Of a stretch of 64,000 nt of DNA, positions 18,001 to 21,000 are shown piece by piece. The stretch is from Thalassobaculaceae bacterium (GTDB lineage: Bacteria > Pseudomonadota > Alphaproteobacteria > Thalassobaculales > Thalassobaculaceae), in NCBI GenBank assembly GCA_965228875.1, contig OZ245843.1, positions 3,826,616 through 3,890,615 on the forward strand, given 5' to 3'. The position numbers were made by a program. The number at the start of each line of letters is the position of its first letter. The stretch's first letter is position 1.

Positions 18001-21000
18001 CTGGAGACGGGCGAGCAGGGCAAGGCGGCGACCACCCTGATCGACGACCTGCCGCTGTTCAGCGCTGCCGCCCCGAAGCCGCGGTCCGCCGAGCCGGCGG
18101 GCCCGACCCCGCTGGAGGCGGCGGTCCGCGCGCTGAACCCGGACGAGATGACCCCGCGGGAAGCGCTCGATGCTTTGTATGCGCTAAAAGGGCTTGTTAG
18201 CTGAAGCTGAATAGCGGCTCAGTTTGCAGTGAGCTGCTGCGACGGCTACCATATCTAGATTTTGTAATAATGTTTCACACAAAATCTATTGAACATCAGG
18301 CCCTTTTCCAGGATCTTTAAATCTTACATGGCCAAAAAGAAGGGCCGCCAAGTTTGACGGCCCGTTGCCTCTCACTGGAGGCGTGGCTGAGTGGTTTATA
18401 GCACCGGACTCAAAATCCGACGGGGGTACGGCTCTCACACCTAAGGCCCCCCGTGGGTTCGAATCCCACCGCCTCCGCCATTTCCTGGGTGGTCCTTCGG
18501 GACCACCCTTTTTCTTACGTTTTCACGTTAGCAAGCCAACAAATTCAAATCGACTCGATTCTGCCCCGATTCGATTCGCCAGTAAAGAATAAAAATGCCA
18601 TTTTAATTGAATAAAATGGCTACTCATTCAAAATCTTCTCGCGGCAGAGGTCGGCCGAAGAACGAGACAGACACCGTACAGATCACGCTCGCTGTACCGC
18701 CGAGATTGCATGCCTATCTCCGATATCTGGCACAGAACACGATGATGGGACCGTCGGCCCCAGCTGTGGCTCTATATGTGTTGACTAAGCAATTGGAAGA
18801 AATGCGGTTATCCGGCTATCAAGAGCCTGAACTGCCCAGTAACAACTCACCAGAAAATCAATAAACTAGGGCCGGCCCGTCCTGAGCGTGGCATCGATCA
18901 GTCGGGTGATCGCCGCGCAGTAGGGGGCTGGATCCGCTCCGCCGGCGATCGCCAGGGCGGCCCGGTCGAAGGCGGCGGACAGACAGTCGGCCAGGGCGTC
19001 GAGCTCGGCCGGGTCGATCCGCGGCATCGCGGCGTCGAGCCCCCGGCGCAGGGTGTCGCCGCCCTGCTCCCTGTCCAGCGCCGCCATGGCTTCCGGCCCG
19101 AGCACGGCCGGCCCGTCCAGCAGCAGCAGTCGGGCCCGTCCGGGCTCCGTCATCGCCGCGAAATAGGCGCCGGTTCCCTCGATCAGCGCCTGGCGCGGCG
19201 AAATCTCCGGTCCCGTCGCCCGTTCGATGGCGCCGGACAGGGCGGCGGCCTCGGCGGCGACCACGGCCCGGAACAGGTCGGCCTTGTCGGCGAAGTGATG
19301 GTAGAGCGCGCCCCGTGTGACCCTGGCGGCGGCCACGATCTCCGGCGTGCCGGTCTCCCCGTATCCCTTCTCCACGAACAGCGTGCGGGCCGCGGCGATC
19401 AGCGCCGCCTTGGTCGCGGCCGTGCGGGACTCGTTCGATCGGCGCGATGTCTGTTGCATACATACAGCCTGTATGTTAATTCGCATTCACTTACATACAA
19501 ACTGTACGTATCTGTCTCGGAGGGCGATAGCCATGAAATGCAGCCAGTTCTATCCGGTCATCATGACCGACGCGGTGGCGGTGACCGCGCGCTTCTACAT
19601 CGACCACTTCCGGTTCGAGCCCAAGTTCGAGAGCGACTGGTACGTCCACCTGCAGTCGGTCGAGGACGAGAGCGTGAACATCGCGGTTCTCGCCGGCGAT
19701 CACGAGACCATTCCGGCCGAAGGCCGGGGGCGGGTTTCCGGCCTGCTGATCAATTTCGAGGTCGAGGACGTGGATGCCGAGTTCGCCGCCGCCGAGGCGG
19801 CCGGCCTGCCGATCCTGCTGGGGCTGCGCGACGAGCCCTTCGGCCAGCGCCATTTCATCACCCGGGATCCCAGCGGCGTGCTGATCGACGTGATCAAGCC
19901 GATCCCGCCGAGCGCGGAATTCCTGGCCCAATACGCCGCCGACGCGGTTCCGGCCTGAGGCACACAGGGCGGCGGGGAAACCGGCCCGGATCTTCCACGG
20001 ACAGATCTTCCATGGCCCGGACATCCCCGCCGCGACCTGTTAGGATCTCGCCATGACCGATCAGCCGACCAGCATCGTCTTGGAATACCTACGCCGAATC
20101 GATGCCAATGTTCAGGCCTTGCGTGAGGACATGGCTGATGTGAAACAGCGCCTCAGTCTCGTCGAGGAAGGCGTTGCTATCGTCAACCGGCGTCTGGACC
20201 GCCTGGAGGTTCGGGTCGACCGGATAGAGACCCGCCTCGGCCTCGCCGAGGCCTGAGGTCTTACGCCACCTTCGAGTACACCGTCTCTCCGGTCAGGCCG
20301 GCAGCATCCATCGCAGCTGCGATCTTGGCGATCTCGGCCTCGCTCAGCTTCACCAGCGGCGGGCGGACATGGGCGGCATCCATGCGGCCGAGATGGACCA
20401 GCGCCTCCTTCATGCGGTTGTGCATGTCGAGGAAGGGCGGGTCGTAGAACGCGCCGGTGGTCGGGTAGATCCGGTCGGCGATCCGCCGCGCCTCCTCCAG
20501 GTCGCCGGCCTGGACCGCGCGGAACAGCGCCACCTGCAGGGCGGCGATGACGCTGCCGGCCCCCGACAGCAGCCCGTCGCAGCCGAGCACCAGCGAGGAC
20601 AGCAGCCACGAGGAATGGGTCGTCAGCACGCTGACCCGCCGCGGCAGGGCGTGAAGCGTGCGGACCTGCTGTTCGTGCTGCTTGGCGTCGTTGCACCAGT
20701 CCTTGATGGCGACAACGGTGTCGATCTCCTCGCAGATCCGGACCAGCGTCTCCACCGGGTAGCCGAGCGTGGCTGCCGGATACTGAAACAGGATCAGCGG
20801 CAGGTCTGTCGCCTCGCGGATCGCGGCGAAGTGGGCGAGCGCCATTTCCGGGCGCATGGCCCCGCCGGAGAGCAGCGTGTTCGAGGGGAAGACCAGCAGC
20901 GCGCTCGCGCCGTCGCGTTCGGCCCGCCGGGCGATCGCCGCCGCCAGGTGGGAGCCGTCGCTGTAGACGCCGTGAACCACCGGCAGCCTGCCGCCGACCT

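Follow-up and report, generated by a model that had tools for sequence, protein, structure and literature searches.

A horizontally acquired serine-type tRNA with a leucine anticodon and a giant variable arm in a Thalassobaculaceae bacterium

The mutS/tetR junction on contig OZ245843.1 of the Thalassobaculaceae bacterium hosts a foreign insert that carries a tRNA gene (Table 1). Positions are counted along the window, that is, the whole stretch of 64,000 nucleotides analysed here, unless the contig is named. The insert substitutes the final codons of mutS, and its right end is the tetR stop codon. The preliminary description had the tRNA gene lying between mutS and tetR. It does lie there, but an 82-aa open reading frame (ORF) intervenes and tetR faces it from the opposite strand.

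Table 1. Features of the insert at the mutS/tetR junction and its flanks
Feature	Position	Strand	Remarks
mutS (left flank)	15514..18204	+	C-terminal residues changed by the insert
Low-GC insert	18189..18865	.	~677 bp; holds the operator copy, tRNA, terminator and 82-aa ORF
Putative NrdR operator copy, as upstream of the nrdJ gene of the genus	18246..18292	+	Box 1 18246-18261, 15-bp linker, box 2 18277-18292
5′ leader hairpin	18342..18363	-	13 nt before the tRNA; G+C-rich, 9 pairs (7 G-C), tail TTCTTTTT on the minus strand
tRNA gene	18377..18480	+	Class II, 7/5 cloverleaf with a Ser-type body and the anticodon CAA; 101 nt, then an encoded CCA
Anticodon CAA	18411..18413	+	Loop CUCAAAA (U33, A37, A38)
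Giant variable region	18421..18452	+	32 nt: C44, G/C basal stem of 5-6 bp, 20-nt interior, C48
Intrinsic-terminator-like hairpin and T tract	18487..18516	+	7 nt after CCA; hairpin 18487-18508, 9 pairs (7 G-C), tail TTTTTCTT
82-aa ORF	18616..18864	+	Only protein gene on the insert; between tRNA and tetR
tetR-family regulator (right flank)	18866..19486	-	Convergent with mutS

The GC content of the insert is 0.50-0.56, versus 0.68 genome-wide. The junction was located in eight other genomes of the genus, and all of them lack the insert there. In seven of them (loci L010-L012 and L014-L017) mutS abuts tetR, the 3′ end of mutS (18183-18191) being followed by that of tetR (18866-18884) within ~2-50 nt. 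The eighth, G046 (L013), has a different insert there, AT-rich and unlike the tRNA-bearing one. In sequencing run X1, a single contig covers 17871-19346 and both junctions with 0 differences, and pieces of the insert are also present in three further runs from two studies; the runs were compared as contigs only, and run X7, of the same species label, has zero cover even on mutS and so bears in neither direction on the insert. Direct repeats at the insert junctions do not rise above shuffles, and the insert encodes no integrase, transposase, toxin or synthetase. The plasmid collection searched gave 0 matches. The sole match in the phage collection is an ordinary tRNA-Ser(UGA) from a Bacillus phage tRNA cluster. 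By its composition and distribution the tRNA gene is foreign and horizontally acquired, because the insert is absent in same-genus genomes and low in GC, the nearest relatives of the tRNA are metagenomic, and the search pattern for such tRNAs has no match among 400 further genomes sampled from the class.

The main features reported for the tRNA hold. The Rfam tRNA model aligns to 18377-18477 on the plus strand over model positions 1-71 (57.5 bits, E 1.6e-11), a full cloverleaf, and CCA follows at 18478-18480. ARAGORN is blind to it and calls no tRNA in the whole window. The CUCAAAA loop, the GGAGGCG acceptor strand, G73 and the terminator after CCA are all present as described, and the variable arm is indeed oversized, at 32 nt rather than ~31. 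The acceptor stem GGAGGCG/CGCCUCC contains G1-C72, G2-C71 and A3-U70. With a T stem of 5 bp it forms a 12-bp branch, in which an eighth acceptor pair would be U8.C65. Elements common to all tRNAs are retained (U8, A14, G18G19, U33 and TTCGAAT). The D arm is GCUGAGUGGUUUAUAGC, compared with GCGGAAUUGGUAGACGC in the host tRNA-Leu(CAA), and its stem of 4 bp, including C11-G24, U12-A23 and G13-U22, closes a 9-nt loop. The anticodon stem has 5 positions and is weakened by one mismatch, C27.A43, and the Levitt position is G15/C48. The variable region is about twice as long as in the host Ser tRNAs (16-20 nt); its stem, as in those tRNAs, has a single unpaired base at either side, and its interior consists of an internal loop, a 2-bp mini-helix and an 8-nt C/U/A-rich loop. 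The single-sequence minimum free energy fold is not a cloverleaf (z-score -1.26), a result that is uninformative for a tRNA.

Bacterial serine identity elements listed in the literature include G73, G1-C72, G2-C71 and a long variable arm, while E. coli LeuRS needs A73 and A15-U48 and is deterred by G73 (PMC9976931). The tRNA has the three acceptor-end elements and a long paired variable arm of serine geometry; it lacks A73, A15-U48 and a Leu-type D loop. The 13-bp acceptor/T branch and UCA anticodon of tRNA-Sec are also absent. Judged by these elements, its identity set is that of a bacterial tRNA-Ser and not that of a tRNA-Leu. The host tRNAs are divided in the way previously stated: all four Leu tRNAs start with GCS and have A73, and all four Ser tRNAs start with GGA and have G73. 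Two other earlier statements proved right, namely that a canonical tRNA-Leu(CAA) is kept (contig positions 4074915-4075001) and that there is a single SerRS, judged by one match to the SerRS N-terminal domain in the genome. The T arm, said to equal those of host Ser(UGA) and Ser(GCU), is exactly that of Ser(UGA) but differs from Ser(GCU) by one base. Outside the anticodon arm and the variable region, 38-44 of 52 positions match the host Ser tRNAs, versus 29-33 for the Leu tRNAs. From A31 to U39 (A31-CUCAAAA-U39), the anticodon loop and the pair that closes it match the host tRNA-Leu(CAA) exactly. The tRNA differs from canonical bacterial tRNA-Ser in its CAA anticodon, the length of its variable region, U12-A23, G13-U22, C27.A43 and its foreign origin. 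It had been suspected of being a decaying duplicate of a host tRNA-Ser. We reject this in view of its identity of 68% to host Ser(UGA) versus 81-83% to metagenomic CAA tRNAs, together with its place on a low-GC insert absent in relatives.

In 62 other Thalassobaculaceae genomes the full-length best matches are tRNA-Ser(UGA) genes of 68-72% identity, as noted before. The further claims that the tRNA lacks a counterpart in public genomes and is confined to a single genome lineage do not stand, since relatives of 75-83% identity with the same giant variable arm were found in metagenomes and in one Acidobacteriota MAG. The nearest among the matches listed are the metagenomic L142 (83%), L163 (82%) and L145 (81%). 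Ser-type CAA tRNAs with shorter arms are present in other MAGs and in one viral (IMG/VR) contig. We define the giant-arm family by a 7/5 cloverleaf, G73, CAA, a variable region of >=27 nt and a G/C basal stem. The OZ245843.1 tRNA agrees with this definition, and the other members are L142, L069, L163, L154 (identical to L171), L145 (identical to L162) and L164. The scans covered tRNAs that have both the CAA loop and one set D-arm motif, so that the family has at least these members.

Across eight giant-arm sequences, 90.4% of the cells pair, and both partners are changed in 16 of 26 pairs, including pairs of the basal variable stem. Because the paired positions covary to a degree reached by 0 of 500 shuffles, the pattern indicates that the family is under selection as a tRNA. 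The elements for translation (7/5 branch, U33, A37A38, G18G19, T loop and G73) are kept throughout, and CCA is encoded in the OZ245843.1 tRNA, L142 and L069. The two-part architecture of the variable arm is kept as well: in the OZ245843.1 tRNA, L163, L142 and L154, the 2-bp inner helix alternates between GG/CC and GC/GC around a C/U/A-rich loop of 7-8 nt. The relatives have as neighbours Abi_2, a SocA/Panacea antitoxin, an N6_N4 methylase, DDE_Tnp_1 and a PIN-like/DUF433 pair, and IS1595 adjoins them at three loci. A canonical A73 tRNA-Leu(CAA) is retained in the Thalassobaculaceae genome and in three other hosts; in these four hosts the Ser-type tRNA(CAA) is an extra gene and does not replace tRNA-Leu(CAA). 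ARAGORN missed all eight giant-arm members and called the shorter-armed ones tRNA-Leu.

In the host genome UUG still means leucine. It accounts for 3.8% of Leu codons, and about two thirds of long ORFs contain it. In 221 orthologue pairs with genome G050, UUG is aligned with Leu at 197 of 235 positions, the rest being mostly V, M, I, F and T, and on this basis we reject a reassignment of UUG to serine; the same alignment on mutS, tetR and the glyoxalase gene alone gave 2 UUG codons. The 82-aa ORF on the insert has three UUG codons, one of which is a nearly invariant leucine, L56.

The operator copy lies ~85 nt upstream of the tRNA gene. It is 88-92% identical over 51-57 nt to a conserved site in genomes G000 (C1:132176-132227), G050, G049, G046 and G043; in G000 a class II ribonucleotide reductase gene (PF08471) lies ~380 nt downstream of this site. 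In sequence, 18246-18292 has the layout of an NrdR operator, in which two 16-bp partial palindromes are separated by 15-16 bp, the spacing here being 15 bp. Of the positions reported as conserved in the NrdR box (C4, A6, A8, T9, T11 and G13; PMC13584703), box 1 has six of six and box 2 five of six, and a gene for NrdR is present in the genome. A loose criterion using the six positions is matched at 17 sites genome-wide; therefore, we infer NrdR control of the tRNA from the homology to the nrdJ site and not from the motif alone. The region may also hold a promoter (-35 TTGTAA at 18262-18267 and -10 TCTATT at 18285-18290), while a promoter scan found no sigma-70-like site at threshold. The operator is not a trait of the family, as none of 16 family loci carries one. 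The leader hairpin is terminator-like solely for minus-strand transcripts.

Taken together, we favour, with a probability of roughly 0.55, the reading that the OZ245843.1 gene is a horizontally acquired, intact class II tRNA with a Ser identity set and the Leu anticodon CAA, belonging to a scattered, mobile-element-borne family with a doubled variable arm and putting serine for leucine at UUG. Transcription would start from the captured NrdR-controlled promoter or, alternatively, come from mutS read-through, and the transcript would be processed to a 104-nt tRNA ending in CCA. The lone host SerRS would add serine, reading the long variable arm, G73 and G1-C72/G2-C71 and ignoring the anticodon, and LeuRS would be kept off by G73 and G15-C48. 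The charged tRNA would then compete with the single canonical tRNA-Leu(CAA) at UUG on the ribosome. If the gene is expressed, what it most likely does is insert serine for leucine alongside the tRNA-Leu(CAA) that the genome retains. The tRNA is probably repressed and held at low or conditional levels, because so many long ORFs contain UUG and because tRNAs related to it are toxic to E. coli. To our knowledge, no SerRS substrate characterised so far has a 20-nt variable-arm interior, and such an interior could hinder SerRS, EF-Tu or the ribosome. According to PMC7590224, tRNAs whose variable arms were extended with aptamers remain active in E. coli, and one bulge in the variable stem of an allo-tRNA abolished serylation.

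It is possible, though we consider it doubtful, that the molecule is a non-translational tRNA-like RNA of mobile or defence elements, serving as a regulator, as a decoy or mimic for a tRNA-targeting toxin, or, through its enlarged variable arm, as a protein-binding handle, and that it is left unused by the ribosome whether charged or not. The toxin-antitoxin, Abi, restriction-modification and IS genes that adjoin its relatives would fit such a role, as would the conserved two-part variable arm, which exceeds the known needs of SerRS. Precedents are the six allo-tRNA(UAU) variants that are inactive in translation, like the G-1 tRNAs, and for which regulatory roles have been proposed (PMC5389517), and the proteins that sequester tRNAs by binding to engineered variable-arm aptamers (PMC7590224). 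However, every element for translation is kept across the family, a pure decoy needs no paired acceptor stem with compensatory changes, and the insert is devoid of a toxin gene. We find it unlikely that the gene is a silent hitch-hiker, that is, a recent import left over from a larger element with no meaningful expression or function here. The small size of the insert, its lack of an integrase, a transposase or clear junction repeats, and the different AT-rich insert that a neighbouring species has at the same junction, as if the site collects foreign DNA, are in line with this, and a toxic mistranslator is best tolerated when silent. Nevertheless, the gene is intact, a terminator follows it, a homologue of a host-genus operator and promoter region stands upstream of it in the right orientation, which looks like recruitment rather than debris, and the insert recurs, with its junctions or in pieces, in the runs mentioned above.

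That LeuRS charges the tRNA as an extra leucine isoacceptor, or that UUG has been given over to serine, is highly improbable. The anticodon loop and closing pair shared with the host tRNA-Leu(CAA) and the ARAGORN names of the shorter-armed relatives speak for an isoacceptor, but G73, G2-C71 and G15-C48 stand in place of A73 and A15-U48, and both the orthologue alignments and L56 of the co-inserted ORF contradict a reassignment. UUG is rare in the host and should be commoner in AT-rich invaders. A bolder extension of the favoured reading, which we hold to be rather improbable, makes the gene a mistranslation device. NrdR would keep it off at normal dNTP pools, and replication stress or phage would derepress it so that serine floods UUG, resulting in abortive infection or stress diversification; a partner protein would bind the doubled variable arm, in which the inner mini-helix and loop are conserved, as a second control handle, and the family would consist of mobile toxic-tRNA modules missed or mislabelled by standard tRNA finders.

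Few natural bacterial tRNAs have a charging identity that disagrees with the anticodon. Insertion of serine at UUG by a Ser-identity tRNA, as originally proposed, agrees with the sequence. The accompanying claim that it would be the first such mistranslator in bacteria has to be dropped, since bacterial allo-tRNAs of Ser identity with Leu anticodons cause E. coli to incorporate Ser at Leu codons and are toxic there (Mukai et al. 2017, PMC5389517). Allo-tRNAs occur in Acidobacteria and Proteobacteria, where their neighbours are often toxin-antitoxin or transposon genes, and share with the OZ245843.1 tRNA a long variable arm, a G73 (or U73) that goes with Ser identity, and a non-Ser anticodon, including readers of UUA, UUG, CUA and CUG (PMC5389517). 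They differ in their 8/4 or 9/3 branch, in a D stem that is long, Sec-like and capped by a tetraloop, and in having more pairs in the anticodon stem; the tRNA described here is 7/5, with a Ser-type D arm and the ordinary 5-position anticodon stem. Our literature searches, which did not extend to the supplements of PMC5389517, turned up no bacterial tRNA(CAA) described as both 7/5 and Ser-type; those supplements could list some among "irregular tRNAs with 7/5 structures". The tRNA-Ser(CAG) of Candida and the CTG clade, and that of Ascoidea, also combine Ser identity with a Leu anticodon, and in Ascoidea a tRNA-Ser reportedly rivals a Leu tRNA at one codon (PMC6041473); these are eukaryotic, chromosomal and vertically inherited and read CUG in an adapted codon usage, whereas the tRNA here is imported and would meet UUG at Leu positions. 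The tRNA-ProX/ProRSx pair of Streptomyces (PMC11415595) is likewise natural and bacterial, with body identity and anticodon in disagreement and deliberate mistranslation proposed. In contrast, it has a dedicated synthetase and A33/A34, while our tRNA has U33 and would depend on the housekeeping SerRS for its charging.

The combination of Ser identity and a Leu anticodon exists on an ordinary 7/5 tRNA-Ser scaffold too, in a family with a doubled variable arm that ARAGORN overlooks and that moves across phyla together with transposases and with genes of defence or toxin-antitoxin systems. One of its members is found in a complete genome, and also in species-named runs, behind a recognisable host operator, which would make regulated mistranslation testable in a native host. 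For annotation, a gene called "tRNA-Leu(CAA)" that begins with GGA and has G73 may in fact encode a serine acceptor.

The 82-aa ORF has no Pfam family, no PDB sequence match and no word-index homologue, and no copy of it was found near any tRNA relative. At E<=1e-3 it matches 38 representative clusters with uninformative names, one of them a 3085-aa repetitive protein, and the alignment of its relatives (A3) is conserved. The AF2 model has a mean pLDDT of 85 and two helices, and the best PDB match by Foldseek is a weak one to the ArtA-DNA complex (E ~1, probability 0.75). The ORF belongs to an uncharacterised small-protein family, possibly of the ribbon-helix-helix type.

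The tRNA gene between mutS and tetR is real and intact. It matches the Rfam tRNA model over its full length (57.5 bits, E 1.6e-11), carries an encoded CCA directly 3′ of the body, as the preliminary description had it, and is one of the 48 tRNAs that Infernal finds in the genome (4.96 Mb, 67.8% GC), at C1:3844992-3845092. ARAGORN misses it, also as described, and calls no tRNA anywhere in the window. Elsewhere in the genome, five ARAGORN calls without Infernal support appear to be false hits in coding sequence: C1:255373 (Ser-gga, 96 nt), 1930557 (Phe, 79 nt), 2722626 (Pro-ggg), 3929980 (Leu-cag, 93 nt) and 4268351 (Glu-ctc, 81 nt). 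The preliminary description of the gene is right in all but three details. The T arm, said to be that of host tRNA-Ser(UGA) and tRNA-Ser(GCU), is exactly the former but one base off the latter; and, while the tRNA does lie between mutS and tetR, tetR is on the minus strand and an 82-aa ORF separates the two.

Features of the insert between mutS and tetR, in window coordinates
Feature	Position	Strand	Details
Insert	18189-18865		~677 bp between the ends of mutS and tetR
Operator copy	18239-18303		oriented toward the tRNA gene
NrdR box 1	18246-18261	+	6/6 conserved positions
Linker between boxes			15 bp
NrdR box 2	18277-18292	+	5/6 conserved positions
tRNA body	18377-18477	+	starts 84 nt past box 2
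Acceptor stem		+	GGAGGCG/CGCCUCC
Positions 8 and 9		+	U8 G9
D arm		+	GCUG-AGUGGUUUA-UAGC
Position 26		+	A26
Anticodon arm		+	CCGGA-CUCAAAA-UCCGA
Variable region		+	32 nt
T arm		+	GUGGG-UUCGAAU-CCCAC
Discriminator		+	G73, then CCA
Encoded CCA	18478-18480		
Terminator-like hairpin			starts 7 nt past CCA; 9 pairs, 7 G-C; tail TTTTTCTT
AT-rich terminator-like hairpin	18597-18620	-	over the start codon of the 82-aa ORF
82-aa ORF	18616-18864		between the tRNA and tetR

Judged by sequence, the tRNA is of the serine type under every criterion tested, which agrees with the proposed combination of a Ser-type body with a Leu anticodon. The four host Ser tRNAs (GCU, UGA, GGA, CGA) start with GGA and have G73; the four host Leu tRNAs (GAG, UAG, CAG, CAA) start with GCS and have A73. 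Over 52 positions, with the anticodon arm and variable region left out, the tRNA has 38-44 in common with the host Ser tRNAs and 29-33 with the host Leu tRNAs. The host Tyr tRNA has 41 in common, yet has A73. G1-C72, G2-C71, A3-U70, C11-G24 and G15/C48 are all present, and the variable stem is flanked by a single unpaired base on each side, matching the host Ser tRNAs; in the host Leu(CAA), two bases are unpaired on the 3′ side. According to PMC9976931, most bacterial tRNA-Ser keep G1-C72 and G2-C71; E. coli LeuRS depends on the A15-U48 pair and on A73, and the G73 found in tRNA-Ser acts as an antideterminant against both LeuRS and TyrRS. The tRNA would thus be a substrate of SerRS and not of LeuRS. 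The genome has one SerRS with an N-terminal arm domain, in line with the single gene reported before.

UUG itself remains a Leu codon in this genome. Among 221 orthologue pairs compared with 400 kb of a same-genus genome (G050), UUG was aligned with Leu at 197 of 235 positions, the rest being mostly V, M, I, F and T (CUG positions: 93% Leu). This rules out a reassignment of UUG to Ser; therefore any Ser insertion would be mistranslation rather than a changed code. In 3085 long, high-GC3 ORFs, UUG accounts for 3.8% of Leu codons, at a frequency of 3.70 per 1000 codons, and is present in 2122 of the ORFs; UUA occurs at 0.14 per 1000 (181 codons). Neither ARAGORN nor Infernal finds a tRNA-Leu(UAA) in the genome. 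With regard to the reading of the remaining UUA codons, the C27.A43 mismatch flagged by Infernal in the anticodon stem of the present tRNA may be noted beside the wider wobble proposed for a 4-bp anticodon stem (PMC13092985).

The inserted element, too, reads UUG as Leu, since each of the three UUG codons in its 82-aa ORF stands at a Leu position, one of them the nearly invariant L56. The ORF belongs to a conserved, unnamed family of ~70-aa proteins (38 representative clusters) and matches no Pfam family. In its AF2 model (pLDDT 85), an extended basic N-terminus is predicted to precede two helices, both conserved in the family; the best PDB match of the model, the ribbon-helix-helix protein ArtA, is weak. 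The AT-rich hairpin over its start codon may end tetR transcripts ~250 nt past the tetR stop.

The tRNA gene was acquired horizontally. As previously reported, it lacks a counterpart in the 62 other family genomes, where the best full-length matches are ordinary tRNA-Ser(UGA) at 68-72% identity; a sample of 400 further genomes from the same class also lacked the Ser-type CAA pattern. Local duplication of a host tRNA-Ser can be rejected given the 68% identity to the host Ser(UGA) and the position in a low-GC insert (50-56% versus 68% for the genome) that is foreign to the relatives' junction. Of 10 other same-genus genomes, 8 yielded the mutS 3′ end, and in seven of these eight the stops of mutS and the convergent tetR abut or overlap. 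The eighth, G046, from a sister species, carries another insert there (L013 1992-3011), ~1 kb long, very AT-rich and flanked by a ~45-bp target duplication; therefore, the junction is an insertion hot spot that collects foreign DNA in this genus. The G046 insert holds one 232-aa ORF without assigned function. Junction repeats above chance were not seen around our insert. The insert is not an assembly artefact: a contig of one sequencing run (X1) covers 17871-19346 with zero differences, and an aquatic metagenome run (X3) has contigs over 17871-18345, with one difference, and 18419-19500, with two.

Upstream of the tRNA lies a stretch 88-92% identical to a conserved site found once each in the same-genus genomes G050, G049, G046 and G043, and once at C1:132176-132227 in the source genome, where a gene for a class II B12-dependent ribonucleotide reductase lies ~380 nt downstream with matching orientation. 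According to PMC13584703, NrdR sites are pairs of 16-bp boxes separated by 15-16 bp, in which C4, A6, A8, T9, T11 and G13 are conserved. This six-position criterion is loose alone, giving 17 sites genome-wide. The insert copy and the native site also have the normally non-conserved linker in common, which makes the former a homologous copy rather than a case of convergence. NrdR is encoded in the genome, and we infer that the tRNA may be transcribed from an NrdR-repressed promoter; a promoter scan gave no site at its threshold, and the box pair was present at 0 of 16 family loci. Further box-like pairs, probably operators that belong to other nrd genes, lie at C1:1281942 and 1287898-1288008, with three boxes in a row near 1287898.

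The tRNA had been regarded as unique, the public stretches with the same anticodon stem-loop being read as ordinary tRNA-Leu or as no tRNAs. It is not unique. A scan of genome contigs for a CAA loop downstream of a Ser-type D arm gave at least 120 matches, most by chance; among the matches listed, CAA tRNAs that have a Ser body, start with GG and end in G73 and CCA occur in a Vicinamibacterales MAG (L069), a Myxococcota MAG (L026), L106 and L100, the last with two unpaired positions at the acceptor top. Also among them, a Planctomycetaceae MAG (L018 144-243) has a Ser-bodied 7/5 tRNA whose anticodon is UCA; this tRNA, with G73 and a variable region of 33 nt but without encoded CCA, is possibly an opal suppressor of the giant-arm kind. 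A stricter metagenome scan gave 36 loci. Ser-type CAA tRNAs with a variable region of 27-37 nt are found in L142, L163, L154 (= L171), L145 (= L162) and L164, and with a shorter arm in L144, L159 and L148 (U73). The others are ordinary A73 Leu types (L138, L143 = L173, L147, L161, L169), an A73 Leu-type tRNA with a UAA loop nearby (L151), unclassified tRNA-like loci (L146, L158) and loci that are not tRNA-like (L149, L150, L152, L153, L156, L165, L167, L168, L170), besides two Ser-like CAA groups with an unpaired acceptor top. In one of these the 5′ end is CCAGAG where GGAGAG would pair (L139, L141, L157, L166); in the other the 3′ acceptor strand is broken, its last bases replaced (L140, L155, L160, L172). 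Both recur across samples, which suggests that they are not products of random decay. Viral contigs, scanned as well, add one further Ser-type CAA tRNA, L194, which lies on a 46.6-kb IMG/VR contig. BLAST identities to our tRNA are 83% (L142), 82% (L163), 81% (L145), 78% (L154) and 75% (L069); it belongs to a dispersed, mobile family. ARAGORN misses all eight giant-arm sequences (ours, L069, L018, L142, L163, L154, L145, L164) and labels L026, L100, L106, L144, L148, L159 and L194 as tRNA-Leu(caa), which would explain why the family went unnoticed.

In an alignment of these eight sequences, 90.4% of cells pair and both sides have changed in 16 of 26 cloverleaf pairs, a level reached in 0 of 500 shuffles; pairing falls to 37-59% when partners are slid by 1-3 columns. 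In the basal variable-arm helix, both sides have changed in 4 of 5 pairs. Although the sequences are few and related, this supports, without proving, selection on the family as tRNA. Folded alone, the variable regions of our tRNA, L163, L142 and L154 are predicted to have a common fold: a basal stem of 5-6 bp leads through an asymmetric internal loop to a 2-bp inner helix (GG/CC in ours and L163, GC/GC in L142 and L154), which closes a 7-8-nt C/U/A-rich loop.

The tRNA had further been proposed as the first bacterial mistranslator of its kind. This priority belongs to the allo-tRNAs, described in PMC5389517 as having a long variable arm, G73 or U73 and anticodons for 35 codons, with 9/3 types for the Leu codons UUA, UUG, CUA and CUG; allo-tRNA(GAG) and allo-tRNA(UAA) put Ser in at CUC and UUA in E. 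coli, with growth arrest. To count as an allo-tRNA, a tRNA needs a branch of 8/4 or 9/3, a Sec-like D arm and an anticodon stem of greater length, whereas ours has a canonical 7/5 Ser scaffold; by inference, it would work like an allo-tRNA without being one. The literature searched held no description of a 7/5 giant-arm class, and the supplements of PMC5389517 may hold relatives.

Insertion of Ser at UUG, in competition with tRNA-Leu(CAA) and checked by low or conditional expression, would be the most likely activity (probability about 0.55). The giant arm may be tolerated or disabling: in PMC7590224, tRNAs whose variable-arm tips were swapped for hairpin aptamers stay active in translation, and a single variable-stem bulge can abolish serylation. 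Some allo-tRNA variants, too, are inactive in translation (PMC5389517). A non-translational role for the present tRNA is to be reckoned with, if unlikely, and silence of the gene is less likely still. Three things give the case its value: the family that was overlooked, the doubling of the variable arm with its conserved inner module, and a complete genome in which a recognisable operator stands before the tRNA gene.

The Ser-type gene is an addition and not a replacement, since a canonical 87-nt tRNA-Leu(CAA) with A73 is also kept in three other hosts (G460, G462, G463). Many allo-tRNAs lie near toxin-antitoxin genes (PMC5389517). Neighbours in the present family include an Abi_2 protein (L142), a SocA/Panacea antitoxin (L163), a DDE_Tnp_1 transposase (L208), an N6_N4 DNA methylase with an IS1595 transposase (L144), and an IS1595 transposase alone (L148) or followed by a PIN-like/DUF433 pair (L209). 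At the last three, independent loci, the IS1595-family transposase lies within ~0.2-0.6 kb of the tRNA, which may be a passenger of IS1595-type elements. In L148, the Ser-type CAA tRNA is directly followed by a second class II tRNA (1587-1673), whose body is of the Leu type (GCG start, A73, long variable arm) and whose anticodon is UGG, for Pro; the two together resemble a tandem of identity-swapped tRNAs.
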